Positions 6,704-56,892 of a DNA stretch of 64,000 bases are shown here, piece by piece. The DNA lies in the NCBI GenBank assembly GCA_964552005.1, contig CAZKFC010000002.1, positions 35,188-99,187 of the forward strand. Direction: 5' to 3'. The DNA comes from an uncultured Methanosarcinales archaeon. GTDB lineage: Archaea; Nanobdellota; Nanobdellia; Woesearchaeales; GW2011-AR15. The notes below the pieces were generated by a model, which was given only the letters and a program-made list of their open reading frames with translations, did not search any database and was not told the DNA's origin. The translations under genes and the position numbers were made by a program. Numbering within the stretch: the stretch's first letter is position 1; every line of letters begins with the position of its first letter.

Positions 6704-6717
6704 TTATTTATAAATAA
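6704..6717 (+). promoter_or_regulatory. TATA-box-like element upstream of the secreted coiled-coil gene. A GGAGG ribosome-binding site at 6761–6765 sits 8 nt before ATG 6774.
   Basis: 'tttatttataaata' lies about 55 nt upstream of the preferred ATG. The AT-rich background makes TATA calls weak; the GGAGG Shine-Dalgarno is clear. Confidence 0.25.
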
Positions 6718-6773
6718 TATGAGATTTATAGTTTCTAAAAATAATTAAAATTAGTATAATGGAGGCTAAAAAA

Positions 6774-12966: not shown

Positions 12967-13106
12967 ATCTGTTCTTCTCAAAACAATTTGAGGAAACTTT
13001 AAAAAAAGCCCAGCTTGGATATGATATAGAAAAATTTTCAAAATTAGTTTTTACATTTAGCTTTATTGGTTCTATATTATTAACTTTATTTGGATTATTA
13101 TTTGTT

Positions 13107-14767: not shown

Positions 14768-15198
14768 AAACTAATAGTATCATCTAATTTAGTTTTACTT
14801 TTTTTAATAGTGCCTTGAGGCAGTTCAATTACATAACTAGCTTTGTTTTTAGAAACATAGATAGTAAAGGGTTTAAAATTTTCCTTAATTTCTATTACTC
14901 TTTTATTATCATCTAAAAACAAAACATCTATAGCATAAAAAACAAAGAACATGTGTAAATCTATTTTTTTTGGCTTTGAAAATTTAAATATATAACCAAT
15001 ATCAAGAATCTTTTTAGAAAACATTAATCCTTTTGCTCTTGAAAGAACACTGGAAAGAATTTTTTTATTTTCAACTAATACAGAATTTTTAGTTTTATTC
15101 TTAATCATTTTAGCAGGGACTTTTTGATAAATCATTAACACCGTACAAAATGAGATGATCATTCGGCACTCGTTCAATCCTAAACAATTCACGAACAT
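14764..15198 (-). CDS. Stand-alone DUF192 (COG1430) domain protein.
   Basis: 'RAKGLMFSKK...LHMFFVFYAIDVLFLD...YVIELPQG' parallels the C-terminal domain of the 10159..11133 product. Confidence 0.5.
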   Translation of the reverse strand: MFVNCLGLNECRMIISFCTVLMIYQKVPAKMIKNKTKNSVLVENKKILSSVLSRAKGLMFSKKILDIGYIFKFSKPKKIDLHMFFVFYAIDVLFLDDNKRVIEIKENFKPFTIYVSKNKASYVIELPQGTIKKSKTKLDDTISF

Positions 15199-16108
15199 CT
15201 GTATCTAAGTCAGTAAAATCACAGTAATCTTTACCAATGCCCGTTGTTGTTTGTTCACCAAAATAGAGATAATCAATAACAGACCTGTTCTTTTTCAAAA
15301 GTCCTTGCTCAAACAACTCTTCGACATTCACCATGCTCTCAATTCCAAAGGGTGATGATGATAAATTACCAGTAAATCTCATTAAGAAACTTGGCGCATC
15401 TGTATGATTAATATAATAAGAATTTAACAAATGCCCTTCTAAAATAGTAGTATCATTATTAGGACCAATAAAAGTCATATTTGGCGTAATGTTTACTAGA
15501 TTAGTAACTTTGTCTGAGGTTTCAACCGTATAAAGCGGATCTTCAAACCCAATTATCGAAAATTCTTGTTTGTATTCTTTATCAAAAACCCATGATGCCA
15601 GACCCTTAACATCGCTTATGTTTATGGTTGCGTTAAGCCTTACTTCAACCGTCCAAGGTGTTATATGTTGGATACTTACTTCATGGACTTTTACTGAAGT
15701 AATAATATTAAGTTCATCTGCTTCTTCATTTACTCTGGCAACCCAACTATTAATGTCTGCACCCTGTGTTTCCTGTCTCATTAAGCTCATTGTAATATTA
15801 CCATTGTCTGCTGTTCCATTTACCAATATCTCTGTAAATGTTTCGTCAAGATCTGTTACATAACCTTGGATTTGTCTAACGTAAGCGTTCATACTGATTA
15901 GTGCCCTATATCCTCCTATGAATAACTCCCTTTCCAAATCTTCATCAAAATCTTGGATAAAATTGTTCATTGTTTTAACTCTTGAATATATTGCACTGCT
16001 TCTTTCTCTATATCTATATGTATCTTTAGTAGTTACAACTGCCACCACCAAGATAATAACAAACAATGCTATAAATGTAAAAAACACGCCCTTATTATTT
16101 ATCTCCAT
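15110..16108 (-). CDS. Pilin-like protein with a class III signal peptide-like N-terminus.
   Basis: 'MEINNKGVFFTFIALFVIILVVAVV'. It overlaps the upstream giant pilin by 10 nt, which suggests translational coupling. Confidence 0.5.
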   Translation of the reverse strand: MEINNKGVFFTFIALFVIILVVAVVTTKDTYRYRERSSAIYSRVKTMNNFIQDFDEDLERELFIGGYRALISMNAYVRQIQGYVTDLDETFTEILVNGTADNGNITMSLMRQETQGADINSWVARVNEEADELNIITSVKVHEVSIQHITPWTVEVRLNATINISDVKGLASWVFDKEYKQEFSIIGFEDPLYTVETSDKVTNLVNITPNMTFIGPNNDTTILEGHLLNSYYINHTDAPSFLMRFTGNLSSSPFGIESMVNVEELFEQGLLKKNRSVIDYLYFGEQTTTGIGKDYCDFTDLDTDVRELFRIERVPNDHLILYGVNDLSKSPC

Positions 16109-19100
16109 ACTCTTACCTCAGCTAATGCAGGTCCCCATGGATATGGGATTTTACCAACTGAAATTGCGCCAATAACAAAATTTTGTTCTTCAATATTAAC
16201 ATATATACGGCCGTCATCATCAAAATCTAAGTTATCAAGTAAATTATACATTGCATCATCATACGTATCATTAGCATCATAACTTATAGAAGCGTTTGTG
16301 TAATAACATTGTTTTGTGCCTGTATATGTTGGCGGTACATCCACTGTTGTATTTTCTCCATCTTCAAATTCAATAGACCATTCACAACCGATGGCTTTTT
16401 CTAAAACATCGCTATATGAAACAGAAGCTGTAAATTGCGCAGTATAAATCAAGGTATTATTTTTAGAACATTCAGTATAATTTAAAGGTGAATCACCTGT
16501 TCTAATGAAAAAACTATTGTTACCTGCTTGCAATGTTGGCACAGGTATATTAACTAAGAACGGATCACCCATGGCTGTATAATCTGTTGAATAATCACTT
16601 AGATTATATACAGAATTATTGTTTACTATTAAAGCATCTGTCCAGTGTTCAGATGAATATGACGTTAACTTTGAGTTTGAAACACGGACATCTCCAGGAA
16701 TATATACATTGAAAGAACAGCCTGGGAAATTTTTTTCTTCTACGATAATTGAAATTTCGCCAAACTCTGGCGGGTCTACTAATGGATCATATTCTATATC
16801 TATATTAGAGTCACCATATAAAATACTTTCAGAGATATCTCCTGAACCTTCAATTTCAATCGTCTGTGAATGTCTAGTAGCAGAGATTATTGTAGAGGCA
16901 ACATCCTGATAAAATTGCTGCAGAGCAGTAATATTATCGCTTTTTCTATATATACCATTACCGCAATCTGCTATACCCTGTAAAGTTGTTTCATCAGCAT
17001 TATCACTAAAGCCAACAGCATAAACTGTAATACCATACTCTTGCCTAGCATCACAAGCTGCCTGGATAGCATCCTGGATAGCGTCTCCTGTTCCTTGCTG
17101 AGCGCATTGCCTATTTGCAACACCGTCTGTCATGACCATTATTGCATCTTCCCTTGTGTCATTTAATATTATTAATTCTAAATCAAATTTGGCTGCTCTT
17201 GCAGTATTTGATAAGTCAACAGCAACAACATTATCGCCTTGCTTAAAATATTCTCTTGGCACTTGTATACCGCGAGCATTCCAATATTGGGCAAAACTTG
17301 GATTTGGACTTATATATATTAGTTGGCCATTCAAATATACTTTTGCTGTATCATCATACAAAACATTAAGAACTCCTCTTCCAACTTGATTTAAATCCGC
17401 AACATTAAAGTGTTTTCTAAAATAATAATGGTTTGTTTTATTAGTAATTTTTAACTCAATGTTGTCAAATCTCCACCAGCCGTATTCTTGACTTTCAGAC
17501 GCTCGTAATTTCCCGCCAAGTTCAAGATAATAATTTCCTGGACCTGTTATCCATGGAGAAACGTCTTGGCTGTATGTGCCTGAAAATTCTGCATCGGGAT
17601 TATCCATTGTAAAAATCTCAGGATCATTATCAGAGCCACCATCATTAGCATCTAAGTCTGTACCAAGATAATTTGAACTTGTTGAGCTGGACCATCTAGC
17701 TTTTACCCAGACTTGGTCAGATGTTTCAAAAGGATTGTCATTACCATCCCATTCATAATTAAATGAGAGGATTGCTGCTCCGTTTGCCTGTATTAAATTG
17801 TACATTTCCTGCGTAATATTGATTTCTATACCATACGCACCAGAACAATCATAATTCGAGCAATCATTTTGTGTAATGTCATTATCCATTTCCAATACTT
17901 TGTTAGGTCCAACAGTTACAACTTGATTATAATCAATGTTATCATCAAAACCAAATACACCATTATTATCTAATGTGTCCCAGTCCCAGCCGTCATCATT
18001 TCCAGTAATACCAAAAGTATTGGCAGTTGAATTTAAAACACCTGATGAAAAGTCGTTAGGCGGTCCTGTAATATCTCCAGTATTTTCCCATAGATTTGCA
18101 TAGATTGCATCTGGGTCAAGTTCTTCAAATTCTAATTGTATATTATCAAACCTAAATGTGCCCCATTCTGTATTCTCACTTGCAAGTAATTTCCCACCTA
18201 TAGCCAAATAATATAATCCTGGCCCTTCTATAAAGGAGGTAATTTCTTGTGAATATGTGCCAGAAAAGTCTGTATCAGGATTAGTACGTCTGTCAACTTC
18301 TAAAGTTGTATCTCCTCCAGAAGAAGATAATTCCGCACCTAAATAATTAGTGCCAGAGGTAGGACTCCACCAGTAAGATTTTATCCAGACTTCATCTGTG
18401 CTTTCAAAGGGATTGTTGTCATTACCGTCCCAGTTATAGTTAAAAGAAATCTTTACTTTTCCTCCGTTTACTACAGCATTATATAATTCAGAAGTTATGT
18501 TAATGGCTATGCCATAAGCACCACTACAATCAAAATTTGTACACGCATTACTGCCAGCAACACTTGTATTAAACTCTAACTGTCCGTTAACTATCTCGTT
18601 ATAGCTAATATCGTCATCATATCCAAAAGGGCCTGAACCATCATTATTATTATCATAATCCCAGCCGTCATTATTGCCCGTGCTGCCGAACGTATTAGCT
18701 GTATAATTTAATATGCCAGATGAAAAGTCATTGGGTGGCCCGGGATTATCTAAATTATGTTCCCATAAATTTGCATAAGAAGTATTTCCTGCTAAAGAAC
18801 TGCCAATTTCTGTATCTACAATAGGGCTATAGACAAATCCATTAGTAGAACCATAAATAGCATTATCACTATAAGACCAATCTGATTCATTATCATAATT
18901 ATTATGATACCATGAATCTCCGTCATCATCTACAGGCGGCGGACTAAGAAAATAATTAGTAGTGTAATACCATTGCTCTTTTGACTGAATAACTGTGTTT
19001 TTTGAAATATTCTCTGTTAATATTGCAACAGCACTATTTATACCGCAGCATACACAAGTCGCGCCGCTGCCTTCATATCCTGTTTCTGGTACAGCTGTTC

Positions 19101-20550
19101 CGATTGTCTGATTTAATATATCAAAATTCGTCGTAGGATATACTGTCTCAAATGCATGTGTAGTATCATCATAAGAAATTAAACCTACTTGGTTTCCAGT
19201 TATGTTTAATATATCTTTTGAAAACTGTTTATCAAGACATTTAGCTACACTTAGCCTTGCTGTGCTTGAATCATTAAAATTTGCATCATCACAATTGCGT
19301 GCAGTGCCTGTATTATCACTATCCATACGCCAATCCATACTTCCAGACACGTCTGTTACTAATGTAACATCGGCATTTCCCTCAAAGATAAAGCCAAAAC
19401 TTACATTTTCAAAGCCAACTCGTATAGGCACGGTTTTAGCATTCATTGATGACAAGGCAATATATTTAGTAATGTTCTGCACAGTTACTGTGTGGTTTTT
19501 CTCTCCTGTTAAATTACTATCTTTATAGACGGTTGAATTTCCTATTGTCAAATAAAAAGTATTATTTGTGGCATTTGTGGCATTAACAAAATAATGTAGA
19601 TAAACTGATATGTTGTTTAGTGTTCCTGGAACATAAAAGGAAGAGTATAAATTAATTATGCCTTCTATATTGGGAAGCCATTCTTTTAGCGCATATTTTA
19701 ATGGTTCTTGCTGAAGAACATCTGTTTGGTAATCTACTCTTATAAAACCACCTCCAATAAATGCTTCTCCTAAATCACCTAAAAACGAAATTGAAAAATT
19801 ATTTTTTGCACCCTCGGCTAAAGAATTATCGCAACTGCTTATATCCCATGCATCTGCAGTCATTGTACCTGTACCTGCACTATAAATTCCGCCACACTGC
19901 ACACCATTTATATCTAAATTAAAATCAGAGCCAGCATCAAGTTCTAAATATAATCCTGTGATATTAATATCAGATGGTAAGACTATAAACCCTGAAATAT
20001 TGCCTTGACCAACGAAACCTCCAAAATACAGGTAAGAAGAATATTTTTTCCTTCTAATTCCTTTTAAATAAACTTTTGATGTTGCTCCTCTTAATGGCTT
20101 AAACTTTTCTATGCCGGATATTAATCTTCGGGAAGAAACTAATTCATCTTTTTTCCCTGTTGGAGAATCATTCAGATAAATAGACTCGCCATTTACCAAA
20201 ATCTCAAAACCAAATTTATCTGGGATTAATTTTTCACTTACAATAATAGACAAATTTCTAGCCAACTCAGTTTTGTTCAAAACATAAAATTCGCCAATTT
20301 GTTCTATAACTGAATTATTAAGATTGATTATTTCACCTGAACTTATAAGAGACTGTATGTAAGAATCATTAACTTCTGTAATCTTTATATTAGATAGGCT
20401 TGCCACAATGTCCTGGGAATAATAGTTTATTTGTGGTTGTTGTATTTCTGAAATGAAATATTTTGATGAAAGTATTAGAGCCATGCCTATTAAAATTGTG
20501 GCAAACAACGCATCTAAAGTAAAAAAATATCCTTTCTTCATTCTTGCCAC
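16099..20550 (-). CDS. Giant pilin-like adhesin (1483 aa): class III signal-like N-terminus, a vWA domain apparently interrupted by a large insertion, and a tandem duplication of about 225 aa.
   Basis: 'MARMKKGYFFTLDALFATILIGMAL'. MIDAS 'DVSGSM' near aa 400. Second-half vWA motifs 'AIMVMTDGV...GITVYAVGFS' near aa 1135. Repeats begin 'YANLWEHNLDNPGPPNDFSSG' (aa 592) and 'YANLWENTGDITGPPNDFSSG' (aa 817). Confidence 0.7.
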   Translation of the reverse strand: MARMKKGYFFTLDALFATILIGMALILSSKYFISEIQQPQINYYSQDIVASLSNIKITEVNDSYIQSLISSGEIINLNNSVIEQIGEFYVLNKTELARNLSIIVSEKLIPDKFGFEILVNGESIYLNDSPTGKKDELVSSRRLISGIEKFKPLRGATSKVYLKGIRRKKYSSYLYFGGFVGQGNISGFIVLPSDINITGLYLELDAGSDFNLDINGVQCGGIYSAGTGTMTADAWDISSCDNSLAEGAKNNFSISFLGDLGEAFIGGGFIRVDYQTDVLQQEPLKYALKEWLPNIEGIINLYSSFYVPGTLNNISVYLHYFVNATNATNNTFYLTIGNSTVYKDSNLTGEKNHTVTVQNITKYIALSSMNAKTVPIRVGFENVSFGFIFEGNADVTLVTDVSGSMDWRMDSDNTGTARNCDDANFNDSSTARLSVAKCLDKQFSKDILNITGNQVGLISYDDTTHAFETVYPTTNFDILNQTIGTAVPETGYEGSGATCVCCGINSAVAILTENISKNTVIQSKEQWYYTTNYFLSPPPVDDDGDSWYHNNYDNESDWSYSDNAIYGSTNGFVYSPIVDTEIGSSLAGNTSYANLWEHNLDNPGPPNDFSSGILNYTANTFGSTGNNDGWDYDNNNDGSGPFGYDDDISYNEIVNGQLEFNTSVAGSNACTNFDCSGAYGIAINITSELYNAVVNGGKVKISFNYNWDGNDNNPFESTDEVWIKSYWWSPTSGTNYLGAELSSSGGDTTLEVDRRTNPDTDFSGTYSQEITSFIEGPGLYYLAIGGKLLASENTEWGTFRFDNIQLEFEELDPDAIYANLWENTGDITGPPNDFSSGVLNSTANTFGITGNDDGWDWDTLDNNGVFGFDDNIDYNQVVTVGPNKVLEMDNDITQNDCSNYDCSGAYGIEINITQEMYNLIQANGAAILSFNYEWDGNDNPFETSDQVWVKARWSSSTSSNYLGTDLDANDGGSDNDPEIFTMDNPDAEFSGTYSQDVSPWITGPGNYYLELGGKLRASESQEYGWWRFDNIELKITNKTNHYYFRKHFNVADLNQVGRGVLNVLYDDTAKVYLNGQLIYISPNPSFAQYWNARGIQVPREYFKQGDNVVAVDLSNTARAAKFDLELIILNDTREDAIMVMTDGVANRQCAQQGTGDAIQDAIQAACDARQEYGITVYAVGFSDNADETTLQGIADCGNGIYRKSDNITALQQFYQDVASTIISATRHSQTIEIEGSGDISESILYGDSNIDIEYDPLVDPPEFGEISIIVEEKNFPGCSFNVYIPGDVRVSNSKLTSYSSEHWTDALIVNNNSVYNLSDYSTDYTAMGDPFLVNIPVPTLQAGNNSFFIRTGDSPLNYTECSKNNTLIYTAQFTASVSYSDVLEKAIGCEWSIEFEDGENTTVDVPPTYTGTKQCYYTNASISYDANDTYDDAMYNLLDNLDFDDDGRIYVNIEEQNFVIGAISVGKIPYPWGPALAEVRVWR
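17428..18777 (-). repeat. Intragenic tandem duplication (two units of about 675 nt / 225 aa) inside the giant pilin gene.
   Basis: The two units align along their full length ('...NDFSSG.LN.TANTFG.TGN.DGWD.D...DCSGAYGI.INIT.E.YN....G....SFNY.WDGNDN.PFE..D.VW.K..W....S.NYLG..L...DG......D.PD..FSGTYSQ.....I.GPG.YYL..GGKL.ASE....G..RFDNI.L'). Confidence 0.55.
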
Positions 20551-21710
20551 AGTACCACCTTCATTGCAATAATTTCAGATATGCCGTCATGTTTATAAAC
20601 AACATATCTTGTTAAGGCTATTAATTTTTCTGGATTGGATGCTTTTACATCGTTAATAGAGGAAAGGTTTTGTGCTGTTGCAAAAGGATATGCTAAGCCA
20701 TTGCCGGAGTTGTACAATCTACCAATCTCATTTAAATCTAACGCCCTGTTCCATATCCCAATTTCATCAATTTTTCCGTCAATAATCAACGACTCTGACG
20801 TGGTTGAAAGAATATGTAAACCATTACTTCCCACATTTAATGTGTTTGTATTTATATCTGTATCTCCAAGCACTCCGTTCTTATAATATTTAAATTCATT
20901 AGTTGTAGAATCATGCGTAATCGCAATGTGTTGATAGATTGAATCATTTAATGTCCAGCCATCATTACATACTGTAGCTTTTCCCACAAGAACAAAAGCT
21001 ATTTTATGACCTGCTGAACAACCGTGAGAAGCAGTAGCTTCTTCTCTTATGCCCCATCCATCATCCATAAAGATGTATTCTCCATCGTCTTGTCCATTTG
21101 GTGAATACCAGAAACTTATAGTTAAATCTCCTGTTACATCAAAATCATCGTAATCTGGCGCTTCCAGAAATCCTGCACCATTACTTTCTCTACCGTCTCC
21201 AATAATTCCCGCTGTATTAGTTGTTCCTGAGTTCAATAAATCTATATTTCCTAATTCGTCTGAAAAATCATTATTGTTCAATTTATAGTATGCAATTAAA
21301 CCGTTTTCTAAAGTATCATTGCCTTTATAATTATCAAATCCCCACAAAACATTTCCTTCCTTATCTTCAAAATACACTAAAAAATCAGATTTTATTCCAA
21401 ACAAATTTTTTACTTTATTGCTATTCTTATTAGTAAGATTAATTAGATATTGCAGTTTGGTTGTATTTAAAATATTGCCCTTATCAACAACACCGGGTAT
21501 TAATACTGTGTCTTCTGTCCAGTTAGTGGGAATTCCCATTGTCAATAATGTTTCACTTAATTTTTCTGCTTCTGACAAAACATTGTTTGTTTCCTTACCT
21601 GGTATATAAAAATTGCTTGTAACAAATTTAAAGGCTATTATTAATATCAATGTAAATATAGTTACACCCATGATAAAATCAAAGTACCATATTTGGTTTT
21701 TTTTATTCAT
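20538..21710 (-). CDS. Pilin-like protein with a LamG/concanavalin-A-like lectin domain.
   Basis: N-terminus 'MNKKNQIWYFDFIMGVTIFTLILIIAF'. Central 'GLIAYYKLNNND...LLNSGTT...GAGFLEAPDYDDFD...LTISFWYSP' is LamG-like. Confidence 0.62.
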   Translation of the reverse strand: MNKKNQIWYFDFIMGVTIFTLILIIAFKFVTSNFYIPGKETNNVLSEAEKLSETLLTMGIPTNWTEDTVLIPGVVDKGNILNTTKLQYLINLTNKNSNKVKNLFGIKSDFLVYFEDKEGNVLWGFDNYKGNDTLENGLIAYYKLNNNDFSDELGNIDLLNSGTTNTAGIIGDGRESNGAGFLEAPDYDDFDVTGDLTISFWYSPNGQDDGEYIFMDDGWGIREEATASHGCSAGHKIAFVLVGKATVCNDGWTLNDSIYQHIAITHDSTTNEFKYYKNGVLGDTDINTNTLNVGSNGLHILSTTSESLIIDGKIDEIGIWNRALDLNEIGRLYNSGNGLAYPFATAQNLSSINDVKASNPEKLIALTRYVVYKHDGISEIIAMKVVLWQE

Positions 21711-21711
21711 T

Positions 21712-22059
21712 TTAACAGTTTAAACATAACACATTATTTTGGTTTGTAATTATATTATCTCCTTTTTGAATATATCCTGTTATGTTTGGTATTGAAAAAT
21801 AAACAACATTATCCGAATAATTTAACAATAGGATGTTGTTTATTATGGAAACTTCAAAATCAAACCCCTCCAATTTTTGTGGTATGTAAAATACCCGAGT
21901 ATAACCTGGCTTTGTTTGTTTAGCTATCAGGAACTCGTTCTGCAAACTGTAGCCATAATCCTCAAAAATAATCCTTTTTTTATCTCTTAAATTGTCTTGG
22001 TAGAGTTCTGAGAAAACAACTGTAAAGATTATTACCATGGTTGTTGCTGCCATTATCAT
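21712..22059 (-). CDS. Pilin-like protein. The annotated ATG lies inside the predicted class III signal; the conserved 'RKAQVSTEF' motif is encoded in-frame upstream (22060–22161) with no ATG/GTG/TTG.
   Basis: In-frame upstream translation '...IKFFEFQSSSGTLRKAQVSTEFIFMIMAATTMVIIFTVVF'. An in-frame stop lies at 22162–22164. Confidence 0.45.
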   Translation of the reverse strand: MIMAATTMVIIFTVVFSELYQDNLRDKKRIIFEDYGYSLQNEFLIAKQTKPGYTRVFYIPQKLEGFDFEVSIINNILLLNYSDNVVYFSIPNITGYIQKGDNIITNQNNVLCLNC

Positions 22060-22139
22060 AAAAATAAACTCTGTACTTACTTGCGCTTTTCTTAAAGTCC
22101 CAGAAGAACTTTGAAATTCGAAAAATTTTATTTTTTCTT

Positions 22140-22547
22140 TTATCCTGATATCGATACAACATCACCAGAAGATTCTATAACTATATAATGAATGCCGGGG
22201 TTAACAGAAATAGATCCTGTTAGATTAACTTGTGAAACTGAAACAATATCTTGAATGTGGTTTTTTGCTGTCCTATAACCAAAGATTATTGTCCGTGATG
22301 TTATATTAATGTAGTCTATCCGTTCTGGAAACTGTGTTTTTAAAGTGGTTTTAGACGGCTCTCCTAAGTAATATATTGTCTCTGCCTTATCTGTGATTTT
22401 TATGGCAATATTTCTTAGATGATTAGTCGCTATGGCATCCTGAACTGTGCCAGATTGATCAAAAAAAATAATTATTAAGGGAATAGTCATCAAAAAAACA
22501 AAACCGAATATCGTAATAAACTCAACACTAACTTGACCTCTTTTCAT
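22140..22547 (-). CDS. Archaeal type IV pilin (DUF361/EppA-substrate-like); a candidate major pilin.
   Basis: 'MKRGQVSVEFITIFGFVFLMTIPLIIIFF' has the KRG|QxSxEF class III signal and a hydrophobic N-terminal helix. 135 aa. Confidence 0.65.
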   Translation of the reverse strand: MKRGQVSVEFITIFGFVFLMTIPLIIIFFDQSGTVQDAIATNHLRNIAIKITDKAETIYYLGEPSKTTLKTQFPERIDYINITSRTIIFGYRTAKNHIQDIVSVSQVNLTGSISVNPGIHYIVIESSGDVVSISG

Positions 22548-40267: not shown

Positions 40268-40329
40268 TATTATTCACCTTATTAACAGTAAAGAACTACT
40301 TTACTGCTTCTTTATCGCCTCAGCAGTGT

Positions 40330-40360
40330 TGCAAAAGTCCATTCCTGCCATACTTTTGCA
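40330..40360. terminator. Perfect 9-bp hairpin between the deacetylase gene end and the uS2 start.
   Basis: 'tgcaaaagt-(13 nt)-acttttgca'. Confidence 0.3.
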
Positions 40361-40400
40361 GTTGGCAATAATATCGTGAAGTTATAGAACATTTATAAAG

Positions 40401-41291
40401 TTAACTGTATCCTCCTATTTTAAAATTTAGCAATCTCTCTAAAGTGATATTCGAATTTGAATCAGGGATAACACGGCCAACATATTTTGGAATGTCATCC
40501 ATTTCATAATGATGAAGAACTTCATCCAATGAATCTAAATCAAGAAGAGTTCTCCCTGCTGCAATTCCTGCAATATATTCAATTTCAAAATTTTGACAAC
40601 TCTTATATAAATTCATATTGCCCTCTCTATAATTTGTAGGGGGCCATGAATCACCAAAGGGTGCTATTAAAGTTATCGGTTTTCTTCCAACTGCTTCCTC
40701 AATTCTATTACAGGATTCACCAACTTCATAATCAACTCTTTGTTTGCTTACTCTGGTTAAAGGTGGATGAGTTATTGTGTGTGTAGCAAGTTCCCAACCG
40801 TTTTCACTTAAATTAAGAAGTATTTGCCAGTAATGATCATATTCACTTATCCTTTTGTCTGGCTGAATTCCAATTACTGCTCTCATACATCTATTATCAA
40901 GATATTCAAACATATCCAAATGTTCCTTTCTAATCCAACTAGTCCCAACATCATCTATCGAGATAATAAGGGGCAGTTTATCAAGATACTGAACATCCGT
41001 GAAACCAGAAAGTATATCCTCCTCTATACACAATTTCCTTGAAATCATTTGTATAGATTTATTTCTTCTTTTGATTTCAGCTTTCCAATCTTCATATGTA
41101 ATAGTAAAAAAATTATCTTGTATTAAAGGTATAAGTTCTGGGAAAAATTTTATATTGGCGGAGTGAAGCATTAAAGAAGGAGGTACATCATTTTTCCAAT
41201 CAAACTCAAACCTTTTTGGTTTAACTATGCTCGCGAGAGAATATATTGTACAAGCTTTTATAAATTCTCTGCGTGAAAAGTTCTCTTTCAT
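40401..41291 (-). CDS. Tat-exported polysaccharide deacetylase (NodB homology, CE4).
   Basis: 'SRREFIKA' twin-arginine signal, 'ISIDDVGTS' motif 1 and 'LATHTITHP' H-x3-H. Confidence 0.62.
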   Translation of the reverse strand: MKENFSRREFIKACTIYSLASIVKPKRFEFDWKNDVPPSLMLHSANIKFFPELIPLIQDNFFTITYEDWKAEIKRRNKSIQMISRKLCIEEDILSGFTDVQYLDKLPLIISIDDVGTSWIRKEHLDMFEYLDNRCMRAVIGIQPDKRISEYDHYWQILLNLSENGWELATHTITHPPLTRVSKQRVDYEVGESCNRIEEAVGRKPITLIAPFGDSWPPTNYREGNMNLYKSCQNFEIEYIAGIAAGRTLLDLDSLDEVLHHYEMDDIPKYVGRVIPDSNSNITLERLLNFKIGGYS

Positions 41292-43072
41292 CTCCCTATC
41301 ACAATTCTTTTAGCACCAAGAATAACTTCATAATTAGATTTGTCAACTTCAAAAATATTTACTTCTCCCTGCCGTCTTCTATTTGCTTCAGCAATTAAAA
41401 GCACTGTCTCATTATCATATTCTTTTTTTCCAACAACAGCACCCACATGCCCCACCCTTGTTTCGTAGCTAATAAATAAGTCTCCTGCTTCAACATCATC
41501 AATAGATTGACTGTGAAAATAATAGATACCGTTTTCACTTAACCTCTCTCTACTGCCGTTCCTTATTGATATAGGGATAATATCGGCGGCATTTCCTGGA
41601 AATCCGCCAACGTTTTTTGGGCTCTCTTCATATCCTAAATGTGCCAATAATACAACCCATCCAACACATTGTATGGCTTCTCCCTCTGCTCTAAAGGTAT
41701 TATAGTTTGCAAATCTGAGCCCTCTTTCCAAATAACCAGTTTTCTGTTCAAGTGATTCATACCATTCAGTAGTTTTTAGATAATCTCCTATTCCTTGTGC
41801 TTCACCTGAATTGAACTGTTCTTTTGTTGTCTGCTGACCATATTGATTAATTAAATCAGCAAGAGTTTTAACAGTTGAAATGTATTCATTATTTTGAAAT
41901 TCTTCAGAAAATCTATCTGTTCTACTATCAGGATAAATGATATAGAAAATTTTGTCTTTTTCTGGGACTTCGCCAAATTCAAAATTTCTTACAATTCTAC
42001 TTTGCCTTAATAGGATTGGAACTTCACGAGTTTTTCTGTAAGAATCATATGCTTCTATTATTTCTTCAAGTTTCTCAACCTGATGTTCTGGTTTTTCAGT
42101 TGTCCAGGCATAAGTTAATACTAATCTTGCGTCAGCATCACCTGGATTTCCAAGGCCATCCACAATAATGGGGTGCCCATTTGGAAATACTTGTGCACTA
42201 ATCTTCAAGTAATATGTATCATAATCTTTTGGCATTGTCCATATAAAATCAAACCTTTTATCTAAAGATGCATTAACTTCAACTGTTGCATCAGAGTTTT
42301 CTAAAGTAATTTCAGGATTAGCCGGACCCACCCAGTATTGACTTGTCCATGGATGCATCCATTTTTCAACAAAACTTGCTCCTGTTAATAAGGATGCCTT
42401 TGCCAAAATACTTGCTCCTGCACAAACTCCCCCTCCTCTAACAATAGATCCACTGCTAGTTTTACCTGGTAAAAACCTGCTTCCATTTGATAATTGTAAA
42501 ATATCAATTAATGAATACTCAGTTCCAGGATGAAATCCTTGTTCTTTATCCTGAAATTCAGAAAGATCTTTACTTTCCAGCAAAAGATTAAAAATCTTGT
42601 TCGGATAAAATTCTGACATCATAGTATATTCTCCTAGAATAGTTTCTTCATTCACAACAGAAGAATAAGCTCTAATTGGAAAGTACACAAAAGCATCAAA
42701 GCCCTCATCTGTTACAGCAATAGGCAAAACTTTTTCGCCAGTCACATTATGTAATATCGAAGCCCTCAGTGTTTTATCTCCAATCCTAAAAGAATATTTT
42801 CCTTTGAATCCCAGTTGTATGTTTCCCCCTAGATTTAATTCGATGATGTCTCTGTTGAAATCATAGAAATAATCATCATGCAAAGGAAGCAGATATGTAG
42901 GCATTCCCTTAGCTTCAAGTATGCCCGTAATATCTGAATCGGCATAAATTAATTCAACTGCATCCCCAACAATATTTTCTTCAAACGGCAAATCAGGGAT
43001 AACAATACCGCCTAATAAAGAACTTAATTTTAAAAAAGACCTTCTACTAATCCCTTGCATACACCCCACCAT
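41288..43072 (-). CDS. Tat-exported protein with a C-terminal CHAP/NlpC-P60-like papain-fold amidase domain.
   Basis: 'ISRRSFLK' Tat signal. 'QCVGWVVLLAHLGYE' (Cys) and 'RVGHVGAVVGKK' (His). Overlaps the downstream deacetylase gene by 4 nt. Confidence 0.5.
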   Translation of the reverse strand: MVGCMQGISRRSFLKLSSLLGGIVIPDLPFEENIVGDAVELIYADSDITGILEAKGMPTYLLPLHDDYFYDFNRDIIELNLGGNIQLGFKGKYSFRIGDKTLRASILHNVTGEKVLPIAVTDEGFDAFVYFPIRAYSSVVNEETILGEYTMMSEFYPNKIFNLLLESKDLSEFQDKEQGFHPGTEYSLIDILQLSNGSRFLPGKTSSGSIVRGGGVCAGASILAKASLLTGASFVEKWMHPWTSQYWVGPANPEITLENSDATVEVNASLDKRFDFIWTMPKDYDTYYLKISAQVFPNGHPIIVDGLGNPGDADARLVLTYAWTTEKPEHQVEKLEEIIEAYDSYRKTREVPILLRQSRIVRNFEFGEVPEKDKIFYIIYPDSRTDRFSEEFQNNEYISTVKTLADLINQYGQQTTKEQFNSGEAQGIGDYLKTTEWYESLEQKTGYLERGLRFANYNTFRAEGEAIQCVGWVVLLAHLGYEESPKNVGGFPGNAADIIPISIRNGSRERLSENGIYYFHSQSIDDVEAGDLFISYETRVGHVGAVVGKKEYDNETVLLIAEANRRRQGEVNIFEVDKSNYEVILGAKRIVIGR

Positions 43073-43122
43073 ATACGCGCAAAAAGAAATTTATATTTAA
43101 AAGTAACTATTCTTGAGGTGTA

Positions 43123-44829
43123 TTATTTTTTTCTCTTGATCAGTCTGTAAGTAATCAAAAAAGAAATAGTAAAACTTATTCCTGTTAAAACACCTAGGGA
43201 AAAAGTATTTAAAAGGCTATCTGTTATAGAAGGCAACCCAATCTTTTCTTTCTCAAAATAAATATCAAGATTGCCCAGTTCAATAGCATATTCTAAATAT
43301 AATAAAGCAGAATATTTATCATTTTCTTTTAAAGAATTTGCATACTCATAGTAACTATATGCTAAAATAGGGAAAATATCTTTTTGATTTTGTTTTGCAA
43401 TAATAGATTTAACAATCTGGCTTCTGTCTTCAATTATGTCATCAACTTTATCTATATCAATAGCTAAATTATTTAGGACAACATCAACTTTTGCCTTTGC
43501 AATACTAGCTTTATATAAACATAGTTCAGGATTTCCATTATTATAATCTTCATAAGACTTTCTTACTGCTTGTCTTACATCTATAGTGCTTGTTGGTAAA
43601 TAAATCTCTATATACTGAATGCGTTCTTCAACTTCAGAAATTTTCTTTAAACATGACTCATCAAGTATGTTTTTATTTATTTCAAAAGTTCTGCCTGGCT
43701 TGCTGAAAAAAATTGACCATGAATACGCGCTATTCAATCTTTCAATTCCGTAAGCAAGTTCATACAAACTTGTGTTTGTATTATTTTTTGCCAAATGAAA
43801 TAATGCATTTGTCAAATGTTCTTTTGACTCACTTAATCTATCATTTACAACCATGTAAGTTTCTAGATCTGTTATTGTTTTCAATTGTTTTTTTTTTGTA
43901 TTGTTTTTAAACTCGTTTGCCCTGTCAAACGTTTCAACAATCTTATCTTGAATCTGTTTTTTGTTCAAATTTTCTTTCAGCAGATATTTATACCTTGAAT
44001 TTAATCCAGAGCCAAAACAATAACTGGCTGCAGAATAAAACTCGTTTTTATCCAATGAATTTAGCCCTTTATCTAATAAAGTATATGATGTGTTATTTTT
44101 GTCTGTTTCCCCATAATAAACTTCTTCTATTATGGTTTTGGCCCTTCCACACAATCTTTCTGAAATAGACCTCATAGTTTCCACATAACTTTCACTTAAA
44201 TTAATCGTTGCAATATTACCATAATCTTTCCCTGTCATTATTTTTATGGCTTCTGTCAACTGCGACACTTCAATTATATTAATATCATATTTTTTCCGGT
44301 ATTCTGTCAGGTTTGACTGGTTAACCTGGCTATATTTTGGGATTAAAACCTTATCTAATCCTATTTCTGAAGCCGCGTCAATTTTTTCTAAAATGCCCCC
44401 TACAGGACCGATTATACCTCCACTGTTAATAGTGCCAGTTATTGTCATGGTTTCATCAAGGGGCAGATCTTCTAACACAGATATTGTCAGGACTGCAATT
44501 GCTGCACCCGCGCTAGGCCCGCCTATAATAGCGCTGTTCGCTCTTATGGTATAGAAAAAATCATAATTAGAGCAGTCTTTTTCAAGGAAACTGCATGCAA
44601 CTTCCTTGGCGAACCTCGTAGATATCTGGGTGTCTAGTTTTGATAGTGGAAAAGACTCAATAAAGACCCTGCCCTGGCCTTCATTAACCTCTAAAAACAA
44701 ATCAGCGGCGCTTCCCTTAGGATTAGTTTCTAAATTAGATACTGCAAGCAATTTCATGTGGCCGGACTTAGATAATACTTGTGGCAAAAGTAATATCAAT
44801 ATAATAACAAACAACAATCTTTTTTTCAT
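43123..44829 (-). CDS. Exported Lon-type S16 peptidase domain protein without an AAA+ module, anchored by a C-terminal TM.
   Basis: Signal peptide. 'IGGPSAGAAIAVLTISVL' (Lon catalytic Ser motif) and 'ILEKIDAAS...DKVLIP' (Lys region). No Walker motifs. C-terminal TM 'LGVLTGISFTISFLITY'. Confidence 0.62.
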   Translation of the reverse strand: MKKRLLFVIILILLLPQVLSKSGHMKLLAVSNLETNPKGSAADLFLEVNEGQGRVFIESFPLSKLDTQISTRFAKEVACSFLEKDCSNYDFFYTIRANSAIIGGPSAGAAIAVLTISVLEDLPLDETMTITGTINSGGIIGPVGGILEKIDAASEIGLDKVLIPKYSQVNQSNLTEYRKKYDINIIEVSQLTEAIKIMTGKDYGNIATINLSESYVETMRSISERLCGRAKTIIEEVYYGETDKNNTSYTLLDKGLNSLDKNEFYSAASYCFGSGLNSRYKYLLKENLNKKQIQDKIVETFDRANEFKNNTKKKQLKTITDLETYMVVNDRLSESKEHLTNALFHLAKNNTNTSLYELAYGIERLNSAYSWSIFFSKPGRTFEINKNILDESCLKKISEVEERIQYIEIYLPTSTIDVRQAVRKSYEDYNNGNPELCLYKASIAKAKVDVVLNNLAIDIDKVDDIIEDRSQIVKSIIAKQNQKDIFPILAYSYYEYANSLKENDKYSALLYLEYAIELGNLDIYFEKEKIGLPSITDSLLNTFSLGVLTGISFTISFLITYRLIKRKK

Positions 44830-53106: not shown

Positions 53107-54066
53107 ATGTCTAAATTGCCTGATTTGGAAGACATTGAAACTGTTTCTGAGAATGCCGAGTTTGGTGTAGAGAGCCACCTGGATAATACTGAACAAGTTC
53201 TTAAGAGACTTATGATAAACATTCAAGCATTTAAAAAGATTGAACAGGAAAACAAAAAACTTAAACAGATGATTCTCGAAAATCAAAAGTTAATAAAACA
53301 AGATTTTAAAAAAAAGCTTGAAGAAGTTGCTCAATTATCAAAACAAAAAGAAGTTGTTATTAAAAAAAATCAGCAAGTTCTGATAAAACAATTCAAAGTT
53401 TTTATTGAAAAGTTAAATAAAAAAATAATAAGAGAAATTGAAAAAAATAATCTTTTGAGAAAAAAATATTACGAGCTTTATACTATAGCCCGAAAATTGT
53501 ACTATGACAATAGAAAAATAAAAATTACTTTGTTGAAGAACAACAGTGTTCTGAGAAAAAAGTTTGAGAATAAGTTTAAAGAAATTAAGAGTTCTTTAGT
53601 AGATAAACAAAAGATTAGCGAAGACCATCATAAAACCTTGTTAAAAAAACACGAAGAACTAAAACTAGAGCTAAACAAAAAACTTATCTTGGAAAAAAGC
53701 CGGAATACGGTGCTGGAAAAAAAGTATAATGAGCTTGTTAAAGCCTCTGAAAAAATATTAGAAGATAATAAAAGATTACAAACAATGAATAAAAAAATGT
53801 TAAATGCCCTTTCATATTTCGAAAAAAGAAGTGTCGCGAACCAGAAAGTGTTGGAAGACCAAGCCAAATTAATCAGGCAAGATTTTGAGAATAAACTCAA
53901 AAAATTTGCAAAAATACAACTTAGCAAAGAGATAGAATATAAAACAAAAATAGATTCTTTAACAAAAGACTTGGAAAAATATTATGACGAGCTAAGAAAA
54001 AGTAAACAAAAGTATTATTTAAGAGAAAAACAATTAAAAGAAAAATTAAAAGAAATCCTTGACTAA
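53107..54066 (+). CDS. Lys/Glu-rich coiled-coil protein.
   Basis: Continuous heptad-like K/E/L/Q-rich sequence. Confidence 0.5.
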   Translation: MSKLPDLEDIETVSENAEFGVESHLDNTEQVLKRLMINIQAFKKIEQENKKLKQMILENQKLIKQDFKKKLEEVAQLSKQKEVVIKKNQQVLIKQFKVFIEKLNKKIIREIEKNNLLRKKYYELYTIARKLYYDNRKIKITLLKNNSVLRKKFENKFKEIKSSLVDKQKISEDHHKTLLKKHEELKLELNKKLILEKSRNTVLEKKYNELVKASEKILEDNKRLQTMNKKMLNALSYFEKRSVANQKVLEDQAKLIRQDFENKLKKFAKIQLSKEIEYKTKIDSLTKDLEKYYDELRKSKQKYYLREKQLKEKLKEILD

Positions 54067-54995
54067 TCTGCCTTTACCAATAAAGGCACTTCTTGCGTCT
54101 GCAGATAATCATAGGTTAGTTTTATTCTTATCTGGTCAAGGAAATCACTTCCTGATTCTGTCTGTTGTATGCATGAAACGTCTGCTTTGCCGTCTCTCCC
54201 CAAGTAGATTTCTCCTTCTTTCCCACCAATGCCAGGCTGACAGTTTAGGTTGGCAACATTAGAGTCTATAGAGAAATGCACTTTATTTTCAGACCTAAGT
54301 TTGTCAGAACAACCACTGTCTGGAGAAAAGAATCTTCCTGGACCAACATGCTCTATTGTAAAAACGTATTTTATTCTGTTAGAGCCGGAAGCGCTCTCGA
54401 CAAAGTTAGATACTTGTAAAGGTGCACCGGAATTGTAAATATTTTTCTCACCGCTCACTTCACAGTACGCTTGCTCCGGTGGATCTGTTGGGTTTCTTAA
54501 TACACAACCAAGAGCAACTGCCTGTGTTGAATATTTATAGCATACTTCTGCTCTAATATCAAAAGGACCATAGTTCTGAGAAATATCAGGAAGATAATTA
54601 AATTCCCCAAAAGTCACATACACTTCTGCAGGCTCTATTGTTCGTCCTTCTTCTTTTTCAACTGCAAAAATATCTTGATCAATACCCTTTTTTATTAAAT
54701 CTGCGTCTGTTACACCAAAAGAATCTGCTTGCAGCCCACTTAATTGAATATTAACGTCTTCTCCTTCTATATATGATTCTCCCATGTTCTTCAATATTAG
54801 CTCAACATAGAATGGCCAACTGTCCCCGTCTGTTACTGATTCAGGCGGTCTATCTTCTTCAAAGGTTATTTGCAGGCCTTGTTGTCCGCCAACAAAGGGA
54901 TTTGTTAAATCTCCTTCATCTGTACCTGTCTGACATTCCTGTGCCATTGTTAATAAAGCTAATACAACTAAAAACATAACCAATATTTTTCTCAT
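54063..54995 (-). CDS. Secreted protein; member 3 of a tandem three-gene paralogous family.
   Basis: Signal peptide. Shared blocks with the two upstream paralogs include 'GGQQGL', 'VCYKYSTQAVALGCV', 'NSGAPLQVSNFVE' and 'IRIKLTYDY'. Confidence 0.5.
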   Translation of the reverse strand: MRKILVMFLVVLALLTMAQECQTGTDEGDLTNPFVGGQQGLQITFEEDRPPESVTDGDSWPFYVELILKNMGESYIEGEDVNIQLSGLQADSFGVTDADLIKKGIDQDIFAVEKEEGRTIEPAEVYVTFGEFNYLPDISQNYGPFDIRAEVCYKYSTQAVALGCVLRNPTDPPEQAYCEVSGEKNIYNSGAPLQVSNFVESASGSNRIKYVFTIEHVGPGRFFSPDSGCSDKLRSENKVHFSIDSNVANLNCQPGIGGKEGEIYLGRDGKADVSCIQQTESGSDFLDQIRIKLTYDYLQTQEVPLLVKAD

Positions 54996-55042
54996 AATAT
55001 CACCTTTACTAAAAATATTATAATTAAGAATTATAAATCTTT

Positions 55043-55936
55043 CTAATTTACATTCACAATAGTAATTTCTTTTTTTGGTAAAGACTCTCTGTAATTATAA
55101 GAAATTTTTATAGGAACTTGTATCTCACTTACCGAAGAAGGCATTTTAAAGTTCCCTGTTGATTCACAGATTGTAAATCCCTTATTATTTACTAGTCTGA
55201 CCGTTCTAGGATTGCATGAGAAGTCATTGCCTCCTACACTTTCAACATAGATTCTATCTATGTTATCATAACCTAAATTAAGACAATTACCTCCTTCATA
55301 AGGGTTTCCGTTTCCTTTGTTTTGAAACTCAATTTCTAAGAAGATTTTGTTTGTTGACATTTTCTTCTCAACTTTTGAAACAACAATTGGCGCTCCCTGA
55401 CTTGTTCCAAGGTCTCTCACACTATAATCACATTCAGAAGGCCCAATAACTTCAAATTGTGTCGGATCAATACATATTTGTGGATATGCCTCTGTCCTAT
55501 ATCCATAGCATGCTGTAACAATAAAAGATTGCTTGAAACTGTCTGTTTCTGATAAAGAATTCATATTAATTCCAGATTCCCATTTAATAATATGTTCTTG
55601 AGACCCTTCAGGATTAAATCGGGTTTTGCCCTGTAAAGGCGAAGGCGGAGCAGGCTTCCCTTCATTTTTTAATCCTGTTAAAATAGAATCATCAAACCCA
55701 GTTAAATGAAATTTAAGATTGGTTGCATCACTTGCGCCTTTGTTTGAGTATTCAACATACACCAAGACATCAGACGTGCTTACAACTTCACTGGGCGGAT
55801 TCCCAGCAACAAAATTCATTACAACACCTTGTGTTCCTGTACGCCAATTATCTTGCGTAGATTGCTCTTGTTGTATAACACCAACACATCCGGTTAAAAA
55901 AACAATCAGAATAATTGTAAATAATGTTTTTTTCAT
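55043..55936 (-). CDS. Secreted lipoprotein-like protein; member 2 of the paralogous family.
   Basis: 'FLTGCVGV' lipobox-like. 'GTQGVVMNF', 'ACYGYRTEAYPQICIDP', 'SQGAPIVVSKVE' and 'IKISYNY'. Confidence 0.5.
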   Translation of the reverse strand: MKKTLFTIILIVFLTGCVGVIQQEQSTQDNWRTGTQGVVMNFVAGNPPSEVVSTSDVLVYVEYSNKGASDATNLKFHLTGFDDSILTGLKNEGKPAPPSPLQGKTRFNPEGSQEHIIKWESGINMNSLSETDSFKQSFIVTACYGYRTEAYPQICIDPTQFEVIGPSECDYSVRDLGTSQGAPIVVSKVEKKMSTNKIFLEIEFQNKGNGNPYEGGNCLNLGYDNIDRIYVESVGGNDFSCNPRTVRLVNNKGFTICESTGNFKMPSSVSEIQVPIKISYNYRESLPKKEITIVNVN

Positions 55937-55938
55937 TT

Positions 55939-56892
55939 TTAATAAGGCAATATTTTCTTTATTTTAATTTCTTTTGATGACGACTCTGTGTATCCATATA
56001 CTATTTCAACTGTTAACGGAGTTTGATATGCATAATTTTCATTTACAGATTTTTCTAATGTACATGTTATAAAATCTTGCTCATTTCTCAAAACAAGGTC
56101 TTCTGGGATACAATTAAAATCTTTTTTTGTAAATTCTGAGAATTGAATTTTAGATATCCTGACTATATTATAAACCTCTGTAGTAGCAGATTCTTTATTA
56201 CAAACTAATCTTGTTGTGCCTTCTTTTAATACTGTTCCTTGACCTTGGTTTGTAACATAAATTTTAAATTGTGGACTTACAGTAGAGTCATCATTCACCA
56301 TCATTCGCGTCTCAATTTTATCAATAACAACAGGACCACCTTGCCCACCTGATAGACTAATACTTTCTTTTAAATTACATTCTTTTTCTCTAGAAGTAGT
56401 ATCAAAAGGATCTGGATCAATACATACGTCGGCAATAGCAATCCCTTTATAATCATAACACAATGTTGTTAAAATAACTGTGTCATGGTACTCACTTAAA
56501 TCATCTAATGACTTAACTATCATAGGTAATTCAACAACATCAAAATCATCTAATGGATTAAAAATTGTTTTTCCTTCTAACGGAGCAATTTCTCTTACCT
56601 TAATATTGGTTAATGCCTCTGGATCACTGGCAAAAGTCATATACCCCTTTTCTAAACTAACCAAAAGCCGTATATTATGAGCAGTATATGGTCCTTTATT
56701 TGTTAATTTAACAGCATAATCTAATTTCTCATTCTCAAAAACCTCATCAGGAAAATTATTTTCAAAATATTCTAAAATTACTCCTTGTGTGCCTTTATAC
56801 AGATCTTTCTCAAGTTCTGCATCATTATTGTTGTTAGAGGTACAAGAAGTAATTAAAATGATTAATAATAAAAAAATAATTTTGTTTTTCAT
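55939..56892 (-). CDS. Secreted lipoprotein-like protein; member 1 of the paralogous family.
   Basis: 'ILITSCTSN'. 'GTQGVILEYF', 'LCYDYKGIAIADVCIDP', 'SGGQGGPVVIDKIE' and 'VEIVYGY'. Confidence 0.5.
   Translation of the reverse strand: MKNKIIFLLLIILITSCTSNNNNDAELEKDLYKGTQGVILEYFENNFPDEVFENEKLDYAVKLTNKGPYTAHNIRLLVSLEKGYMTFASDPEALTNIKVREIAPLEGKTIFNPLDDFDVVELPMIVKSLDDLSEYHDTVILTTLCYDYKGIAIADVCIDPDPFDTTSREKECNLKESISLSGGQGGPVVIDKIETRMMVNDDSTVSPQFKIYVTNQGQGTVLKEGTTRLVCNKESATTEVYNIVRISKIQFSEFTKKDFNCIPEDLVLRNEQDFITCTLEKSVNENYAYQTPLTVEIVYGYTESSSKEIKIKKILPY

Follow-up and report, generated by a model that had tools for sequence, protein, structure and literature searches.

Genes and features of the locus

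The window, by which we mean the whole 64,000-nucleotide stretch of contig CAZKFC010000002.1 that was analysed, comes from a low-GC DPANN archaeon and carries three consecutive minus-strand genes, here called P1, P2 and P3, next to the gene for ribosomal protein S2 (rpS2). Their predicted products are a divergent CE4 deacetylase (P1), a multidomain protein with VanW-like and CHAP-like parts (P2) and a Lon-like serine protease (P3), and the close homologues of P3 are annotated as Candidatus Woesearchaeota. A first-pass annotation, made from the sequence alone, had placed three open reading frames (ORFs) here and we found them at exactly those coordinates (Table 1). It had also described the products as extracytoplasmic hydrolase-type enzymes, which is borne out as a prediction by their motifs, domains and folds, and had treated the three genes as a single toolkit. 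The latter proposal does not survive comparison with related loci, as P3 occupies the same position in genomes that have neither P1 nor P2.

Table 1. Features of the P1-P2-P3 locus. Positions are those of the window; residues are those of the respective ORF.
Feature	Position	Strand	Description	Basis
P1	40401..41291	(-)	296-aa ORF; divergent CE4 (NodB-type) polysaccharide deacetylase, predicted secreted	
P2	41288..43072	(-)	594-aa ORF; multidomain, predicted secreted; Met5 may be the true start	
P3	43123..44829	(-)	568-aa ORF; membrane-anchored S16 (Lon-like) serine protease, predicted extracytoplasmic	
Leader element	40275-40378	(-)	Conserved non-coding element of ~100 nt between P1 stop and rpS2 start	Conservation in related loci
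P1 CE4 core	40650..40970	(-)	Residues 108-214; motif 1 (MT1) SIDD (D113, D114), MT2 HTITH (H171, H175), MT3-like LIAPFG	Family alignment, hhalign
P1 twin-arginine motif	41256..41276	(-)	SRREFIK, residues 6-12	Direct sequence reading
ATGA overlap	41288..41291	(-)	P2 stop and P1 start	Direct sequence reading
P2 CHAP-like domain	41291..41692	(-)	Residues 461-594; papain-fold cysteine peptidase domain, Cys469, His542, Glu562-x-Asn564	
P2 helical linker domain	41693..42085	(-)	Residues 330-460; alpha-helical	AlphaFold2 (AF2) helices 331-457
P2 VanW-like domain	42098..42607	(-)	Residues 156-325; alpha/beta, Cys217-His240-Asp261	Pfam (sub-threshold), hhalign
P2 N-terminal domain	42608..42961	(-)	Residues 38-155; all-beta	AF2 secondary structure
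P2 twin-arginine motif	43028..43048	(-)	SRRSFLK, residues 9-15	Direct sequence reading
TATA-like box	43090..43102	(-)	TTTTAAATATAAA, ~24 nt upstream of P2 ATG	Direct sequence reading
P3 C-terminal helix	43129..43221	(-)	Transmembrane (TM) helix with basic tail RLIKRKK	Sequence; AF2 helix 537-567
P3 all-alpha domain	43258..44193	(-)	Residues 213-524; invariant Cys227/271/393/437	AF2 and alignment
P3 Lon protease domain	44230..44766	(-)	Residues 22-200; Ser106-Lys149	Pfam, PDB, Foldseek

Stepwise insertion of P2 and P1 beside P3

The genes around P1-P3 are archaeal and include rpS2, a RadB/Rad51-type recombinase, glycosyltransferases (GT), a transaldolase and an archaeal type IV pilus-like locus. 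In three related loci (L003, L004 and L005), whose P3 proteins are 63-65% identical to that of the window, the gene order is transaldolase, one further gene, P3, rpS2, RadB, GT2 and GT4, with nothing between P3 and rpS2. Similarly, P3 lies directly upstream of rpS2 in a metagenomic locus on a 1.16-Mb contig (L047). Two other loci, L001 (GCA_964537195.1) and L002 (from JGI), have a P2 homologue of 45-47% identity between P3 and rpS2 and no deacetylase, while the window has both P2 and P1 there; P1 was found in no other archaeal locus compared. Given the synteny of the relatives without P1 and P2, P3 is the resident gene beside which P2 and then P1 were inserted, P2 having come first because it is common to two related archaeal genomes and P1 occurs only here. 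The insertion spans about 2.8 kb (40401-43072), and its right-hand boundary is set by the non-coding element before rpS2, which is kept in all loci compared.

In GC content, third-position GC content (GC3) and codon usage, none of P1, P2 and P3 stands out from the window (|z| <=1.25), and composition gives no sign of recent transfer for any of the three genes. Only short, chance-level repeats flank the P2-P1 insertion, with no mobile-element scars among them. Host-like composition and the absence of flanking repeats together argue that the transfer was not recent.

The ATGA overlap suggests that P2 and P1 are translationally coupled. The gap between P3 and P2 is 50 nt, and the box TTTTAAATATAAA within it is a candidate archaeal promoter from which a near-leaderless mRNA would be made. 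P2 and P1 may be described as a two-gene cassette inserted between P3 and the promoter and leader of rpS2, apparently with a TATA-like promoter of its own. The best-supported reading of the locus is that this cassette lies beside a conserved surface protease by coincidence.

Two of the compared loci deserve a remark of their own. In L002 (JGI Ga0366827_1072182, 3685-7799) both the S16 protease gene (now two ORFs) and rpS2 are split, and the P2 homologue stops before the Glu-x-Asn motif; the cause would be either frameshifts in an assembly of low quality or decay of these genes in the lineage. L001 (also listed as L009; CAZHYZ010000002.1, GCA_964537195.1) is titled 'uncultured Methanosarcinales archaeon' and has the order transaldolase, S16 protease, P2 homologue, rpS2, RadB, GT2, GT4. 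The Methanosarcinales label is probably wrong, as gene order and protein identities match the Woesearchaeota-type window.

Domain architecture of P2

The AF2 model of P2 (pLDDT 80, pTM 0.77) shows four parts after the signal. The first, an all-beta domain, received no assignment from Pfam or the PDB. The second matches the Pfam VanW profile (PF04294) at 19 bits (E = 1e-3), below the gathering threshold (GA) of 27, and because of this sub-threshold score we call it VanW-like and not a Pfam member. Word search yields 17 clusters for the P2 family, and an exhaustive hidden Markov model (HMM) search extends it to 228 representatives; 12 of the 17 are matched by the VanW profile, the best at E = 1.5e-6. 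When the family profile was compared by hhalign with Enterococcus faecium VanW-B, taken from a vanB plasmid, the two aligned over 122 columns (probability 93.9%, E = 1.7e-7). The P2 motifs GGGVC, WMH and SDATV pair with GGGMC, SGH and VDATI of VanW-B, so that Cys217, His240 and Asp261 are matched, and across the P2 family C217 and D261 do not vary, with H240 conserved to at least 90%.

VanW domains have been shown to be LD-transpeptidases whose cysteine is essential, for which a Cys-His-Asp triad was proposed and which have LD-carboxypeptidase activity on the side (Bollinger et al. 2024, PMC11348318); their fold was reported to be without known structural neighbours (PMC11348318). Sequence searches of P2 against the PDB, with the single sequence as well as the family profile, returned nothing meaningful, and the VanW-like region has no neighbour in the PDB, which is consistent with the reported novelty of the fold. 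P2 also had no matches in NCBIfam or PHROGs, and a tblastn search of its VanW-like region against plasmids gave only chance GlxA-type matches, which were rejected. The closest known systems for the middle domain are the VanW-domain LD-transpeptidases (Clostridioides difficile Ldt4 and Ldt5, enterococcal VanW); its triad is in register with that of VanW-B, and P2, too, is predicted to be extracytoplasmic. P2 differs from these enzymes in that PG_binding_4 and G5 domains are missing and in that the partners of its VanW-like domain are the beta domain, the helical linker and the CHAP-like domain.

In proteins of other architecture, too, the helical linker and the CHAP-like domain form a joint C-terminal module. 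The C-terminal domain itself has a papain-like alpha+beta fold that matches CHAP structures; in the model C469 opens a helix (469-477) and H542 lies within a strand (542-552). Among 33 sequences of this domain, C469, H542 and N564 are at least 90% conserved. The label 'CHAP amidase' in the first-pass annotation was correct as to the C-terminal CHAP/NlpC-P60 papain-like fold, with no non-hydrolase fold at the C-terminus of 41288..43072 and with the putative catalytic Cys and His conserved in the alignment, but it under-described the protein, whose best sequence-level assignment is the VanW-like domain.

Full-length P2 gave no CHAP or NlpC match in the curated libraries. Its isolated C-terminus reached 17.1 bits against CHAP (PF05257; GA 26, E = 0.0077), and the same profile matched 6 of the 33 relatives, again below threshold (best E = 2.4e-4). 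A relationship of the P2 family to the CHAP domain of phage K LysK, for which the query was 100% identical to the Staphylococcus phage 812 endolysin, was not seen by hhalign. To the CHAP hydrolases (Ly7917, 5D74; LysGH15/LysK, 4OLK; PlyC) and the NlpC/P60 hydrolases (MepS, CwlO), sequence similarity is sub-threshold only, and a difference from both groups is the helical domain, specific to the family, that always stands before the CHAP-like domain. Unlike CHAP-type hydrolases, P2 has no identified SH3b or LysM wall-binding domain. The CHAP-like domain is a putative second catalytic head.

P1 is a divergent CE4 deacetylase

P1 matches Pfam Polysacc_deac_1 (PF01522) at E = 4.8e-11 (43.1 bits, above the GA of 23.1), the match spanning only positions 44-107 of the 124 in the profile, i.e., the centre of the domain. 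In the PDB the P1-family profile matches ArCE4A (5LFZ) and PdaC (6H8L) at about 3-4e-6, the best solved relatives being a chitooligosaccharide deacetylase and the MurNAc deacetylase PdaC. D113, D114, H171 and H175 are invariant in the family alignment and correspond to the catalytic Asp and the Asp-His-His metal ligands, which P1 shares with CE4 deacetylases such as PdaC, PgdA and ArCE4A. In the hhalign comparison with a canonical CE4 domain MT1-MT3 are in register.

P1 departs from these enzymes in its centre-only match, in a 105-aa N-terminal extension and in that neither the motif-3 Arg nor the motif-5 His was found at its canonical position. Motif 3 reads LIAPFG, in which the arginine of RxPY is replaced, and there is no motif-5 (LxH) His at the canonical position and no conserved His in the C-terminal part. 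A candidate, LMLHS (residues 40-44), aligns to motif 5 of ArCE4A weakly and out of order. Such weak out-of-order HMMER alignments hint at a possible circular permutation of the CE4 motifs, which hhalign did not confirm. The family is small, with only four relatives at 38-43% identity, one of them labelled Anaerolineales bacterium. We take P1 to be a divergent CE4 deacetylase that keeps the metal triad.

Predicted export signals of P1 and P2

The twin-arginine motifs at the N-termini of P1 and P2, which a hydrophobic stretch follows, are the only two in the window in all six frames. Both had been noted in the first-pass annotation as signals for twin-arginine translocation (Tat), on the deacetylase and the CHAP gene, and both are conserved in relatives. 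RRxFLK is kept in 4 of 5 members of the P1 family, and the homologue P0141 has a TAT_signal match. For the P2 family the Pfam TAT_signal profile gave weak matches in 6 of 17 members (10.4 bits against a GA of 22.7), and some members have lipobox-like (lipoprotein-type) signals in place of the twin-arginine motif. The occurrence of either type of signal across the family implies export of P2-type proteins in every lineage examined. A rough TatA pattern and an inspection of ORF N-termini by eye for TatC brought to light no translocase gene of the Tat pathway in the window. We infer that P1 and P2 are probably exported in folded form via Tat.

Relatives and probable bacterial origin of P1 and P2

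The named members of the P2 family belong to Candidatus Dojkabacteria. In a scan of GTDB species-representative genomes the family was found in one Dojkabacteria and one Omnitrophota genome, in addition to the archaeal relative. The gene of P0306, the closest relative of P2 outside the archaeal trio (39% identity), adjoins a sortase and a bacterial-type TyrRS gene. One P1 homologue adjoins Amidase_2-like and LytR_cpsA_psr genes. The ORFs up- and downstream of the P1 homologue P0142 were compared with P2 and are not P2-like.

Modules of the P2 type are fused to canonical CE4 domains in P0222 and P0236, and occur also with a weak Amidase_2 domain (P0228) and a weak M23 domain (P0246). The fusion partners are all peptidoglycan (murein) enzymes, and the CE4 fusions provide an independent link between P2-type and P1-type functions. 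The fused CE4 domains were considered as P1 orthologues and rejected, the similarity being at the superfamily level only. From the insertion relative to syntenic loci and the bacterial nature of the nearest relatives, both P1 and P2 look horizontally acquired from bacteria. Horizontal acquisition had been suggested for all three genes; it does not extend to P3, a core Woesearchaeal gene with a conserved transaldolase, P3, rpS2 arrangement.

In other proteins the helical-plus-CHAP-like module of P2 is found at the extreme C-terminus, as in P0238 (6,855 aa) and P0228 (1,144 aa), or alone in proteins of 150-300 aa. Its presence on giant proteins is reminiscent of the effector or toxin modules that ultra-small bacteria have on their giant surface proteins. 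The catalytic Cys and His are substituted in the versions fused to CE4 (P0222 and P0236).

P3 is a Lon-like surface protease

P3 matches Pfam Lon_C (S16, PF05362) at E = 1.6e-13 (51.1 bits against a GA of 21.1), and in the PDB it matches the protease domain of Archaeoglobus fulgidus LonB (E = 2e-14), where the PSAG serine and the EKIDAA lysine both align. All 36 family sequences examined keep Ser106 and Lys149, and also six cysteines, which would fit extracytoplasmic disulfides. In the AF2 model (pLDDT 86) a hydrophobic helix at the N-terminus is followed by a complete Lon protease fold (21-199), then by an all-alpha domain of 310 residues and the C-terminal TM helix. Foldseek matched the protease domain to the proteolytic domains of Escherichia coli, Methanocaldococcus jannaschii and A. 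fulgidus Lon, with target-normalised TM-scores up to 0.82. The all-alpha domain is modelled confidently (pLDDT mostly >90) and is kept across the listed Woesearchaeal homologues, with no family in the libraries and no PDB assignment among the top Foldseek matches.

The AAA+ module is absent from P3 according to Pfam, NCBIfam and the AF2 model, in which the all-alpha domain stands instead; P3 is therefore a Lon-like S16 protease and not LonA or LonB. A signal-bearing Lon domain without AAA+ and with an intact Ser-Lys dyad is what the first-pass annotation had described, yet its view of P3 as unusual does not hold, given that the search returned more than 2,500 Woesearchaeal relatives and that SepM-type precedent exists. 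The 120 relatives listed are mostly full-length, 45-65% identical, named 'S16 family serine protease' and from Woesearchaeota. P3 matches the SepM family in NCBIfam (NF041438), and standalone, ATP-independent, outward-facing S16 proteases thus have precedent. A literature search for COG1750 found nothing.

With archaeal LonB (A. fulgidus 1Z0B, M. jannaschii 1XHK) P3 shares the Lon protease fold and the Ser-Lys dyad, whereas LonA and LonB have the AAA+ module that P3 lacks. SepM-type proteases are, like P3, without ATPase and outward-facing. SepM and YlbL carry a PDZ domain, which P3 does not. Unlike either LonB or SepM, P3 has the 310-residue all-alpha domain and a C-terminal anchor, and its family is uncharacterised. 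The bulk of the protein would lie on the outer face of the membrane, between the N-terminal signal or anchor and the C-terminal TM helix, where it would probably process or degrade surface or secreted proteins independently of ATP. P3 is a vertically inherited Woesearchaeal housekeeping gene that is unrelated to the P2-P1 cassette.

A candidate rpS2 leader and other features of the window

The non-coding element that bounds the insertion is present in every related locus beside rpS2, whichever gene lies upstream. It is preceded by a TATA-like sequence, CTTTATAAAT, and followed by a Shine-Dalgarno-like AAGGTGA. It can be folded into three helices, in which 96% of the pair cells are paired in 7 sequences as against 33-57% for slid controls. 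Helix 2 has compensatory changes in 6 of its 8 pairs, and none of 500 shuffles reached the observed covariation. The element has no Rfam match. A metagenome pattern scan gave 110 matches, and among the 80 of them that were searched two were true homologues; the other 78 are probably chance matches, as they were unrecognised by the leader model. These features make the element a candidate structured 5' leader of rpS2, possibly autoregulatory, that is restricted to this Woesearchaeal clade.

The archaeal type IV pilus-like locus of the window (11473-22547, also 495-2171 and 2172-5819) encodes a T2SSE ATPase and a T2SSF membrane protein, together with a VWA-domain protein of 1,480 aa and several small proteins whose N-termini resemble class III signals. 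Nearby are genes for another T2SSE ATPase and for a secreted protein of 1,215 aa with thrombospondin type 3 repeats. The locus could serve as attachment machinery, in line with a cell-associated lifestyle. Elsewhere on the minus strand (54063-56892) the products of three successive genes, about 300 aa each, begin with signal- or lipobox-like sequences (…LTGC, …ITSC); with no family assignment except a weak DUF11 match, they appear to be a paralogous trio of surface proteins.

Possible functions and alternative explanations

We consider it fairly probable that P2 and P1 were acquired in steps and form a co-translated cassette, whose two exported wall enzymes of bacterial type act on bacterial peptidoglycan. 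P2 has two thiol active sites, both of them putative. If its VanW-like head works as C. difficile Ldt4 and Ldt5 do, it would form a thioacyl intermediate on the bond between position 3 and D-Ala4 of stem peptides; were water the acceptor, the result would be LD-carboxypeptidase or endopeptidase activity. Given that the archaeon presumably has no peptidoglycan to cross-link, hydrolytic use of P2 is likelier than synthetic use. The CHAP-like head (Cys469-His542-Glu562/Asn564) could cut amide bonds within stem peptides or between MurNAc and L-Ala. P1, as a metal-dependent CE4 enzyme (Asp114/His171/His175, with Asp113 as base), would deacetylate GlcNAc or MurNAc in the glycan. In the maturation of the spore cortex the CwlD amidase is paired with the PdaA deacetylase, and P1 is likewise paired with an amidase/peptidase-type gene; the order P2 then P1 is possibly analogous to this amidase-then-deacetylase sequence. 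Peptidoglycan synthesis is not expected in the archaeon, so that the enzymes would probably act on the walls, or on wall debris, of bacteria that are its neighbours or hosts. A lytic or attacking use is putative, and the purpose may be breaching, attachment or nutrient scavenging.

A second explanation, which we regard as unlikely, is that P1 and P2 act on a substrate other than murein, such as surface glycans or proteins of the archaeon itself, or the pseudomurein or S-layer of an archaeal host (e.g., a methanogen). The thiol domains would then be isopeptidases or transpeptidases and the CE4 enzyme would trim N-acetylated glycans.

It can also be speculated, at somewhat longer odds, that P2 defines a family, so far without annotation, of thiol enzymes with two heads, one VanW-like and one CHAP-like (~230 sequence clusters). 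The family would be common to ultra-small, host-dependent lineages of both domains, namely Dojkabacteria of the candidate phyla radiation (CPR), Omnitrophota and DPANN Woesearchaeota, and could serve episymbionts as a shared device for interaction with the host wall. Besides cutting the peptidoglycan of a bacterial host, the LD-transpeptidase-type head might then tether archaeal proteins, or the cell itself, covalently to it. YkuD-type LD-transpeptidases, which attach Braun lipoprotein to peptidoglycan, offer a model for such tethering.

That P1, P2 and P3 are one horizontally acquired toolkit for attacking the envelope of a partner seems very unlikely. In its favour, P1, P2 and P3 are neighbours on one strand, each with a predicted extracytoplasmic product, and the gap between P3 and P2 is small (50 nt). 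However, synteny already largely refutes this explanation, with P3 beside rpS2 in four relatives without P1 and P2, and the Woesearchaeal members of the P3 family number more than 2,500, a TATA-like box precedes P2 itself and the cassette was built stepwise, P2 standing alone in L001 and L002.

We are equally reluctant, and if anything more so, to see in P1 and P2 decaying or functionless remnants of a transfer, or binding modules without catalysis. The rarity of the family in archaea (only three archaeal loci were found), the truncated copy of L002 with its split neighbour genes and the sub-threshold Pfam matches of P2 would fit decay. Yet both reading frames are intact, the codon usage and GC content are fully host-like, the ATGA coupling and the promoter-like box are intact, and the putative catalytic residues as well as the twin-arginine consensus are kept in archaeal orthologues of only 45-47% identity. 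Lastly, the bacterial type of the P1 and P2 relatives might suggest a bacterial fragment joined chimerically to an archaeal contig during assembly or binning, but we give this hardly any credence, given the same insertion site in three independent assemblies (the window, GCA_964537195.1 and the JGI locus), the host-like composition and the seamless flanking of the insertion by P3 and the conserved S2 leader.

Precedent and significance

It was only in 2025 that peptidoglycan hydrolases secreted by archaea, and equipped with Tat or Sec signals, were demonstrated to kill bacteria, among them Woldo/Danwoldo of Halogranum salarium (Strock et al. 2025, PMC12352652). Also, Woesearchaeota and Pacearchaeota carry GH23 murein transglycosylases, for which preying on, or attaching to, bacteria was proposed (PMC9723730, PMC8204110). 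P1 and P2 have the same traits as Woldo/Danwoldo and the GH23 proteins, in that bacterial-type wall enzymes with Tat or Sec signals occur through horizontal transfer in archaea without murein. The catalytic families differ, being VanW-like, CHAP-like and CE4 in P1 and P2 as opposed to M23, glucosaminidase and GH23 in the known archaeal cases. Another difference is that P2 has no recognisable peptidoglycan-binding domain and no above-threshold Pfam catalytic domain, and a Pfam-based survey would therefore probably miss it. The idea that archaea act on bacterial walls is already known, and the locus joins a growing body of evidence for it; what is new is the set of enzymes and their architecture.

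Whether DPANN archaea physically interact with bacteria, and through which molecules, is an open question, and Woesearchaeota have so far been tied to murein attack only via GH23 domains. The locus adds a cleanly delimited, stepwise insertion of two predicted-exported bacterial-type wall enzymes in a Woesearchaeon, while the signal-bearing Lon domain of P3 turns out to be an ordinary conserved Woesearchaeal surface protease outside any weapon set. Standard domain annotation does not pick up the P2 family, in which the newly defined VanW LD-transpeptidase fold is joined to a CHAP-like one and whose members occur in CPR bacteria, in Omnitrophota and in a small number of DPANN archaea. If P2 and P1 are active on murein, VanW-type enzymes would reach beyond wall synthesis in Gram-positive bacteria, and the two genes would offer a testable marker for bacteria-associated DPANN lineages.

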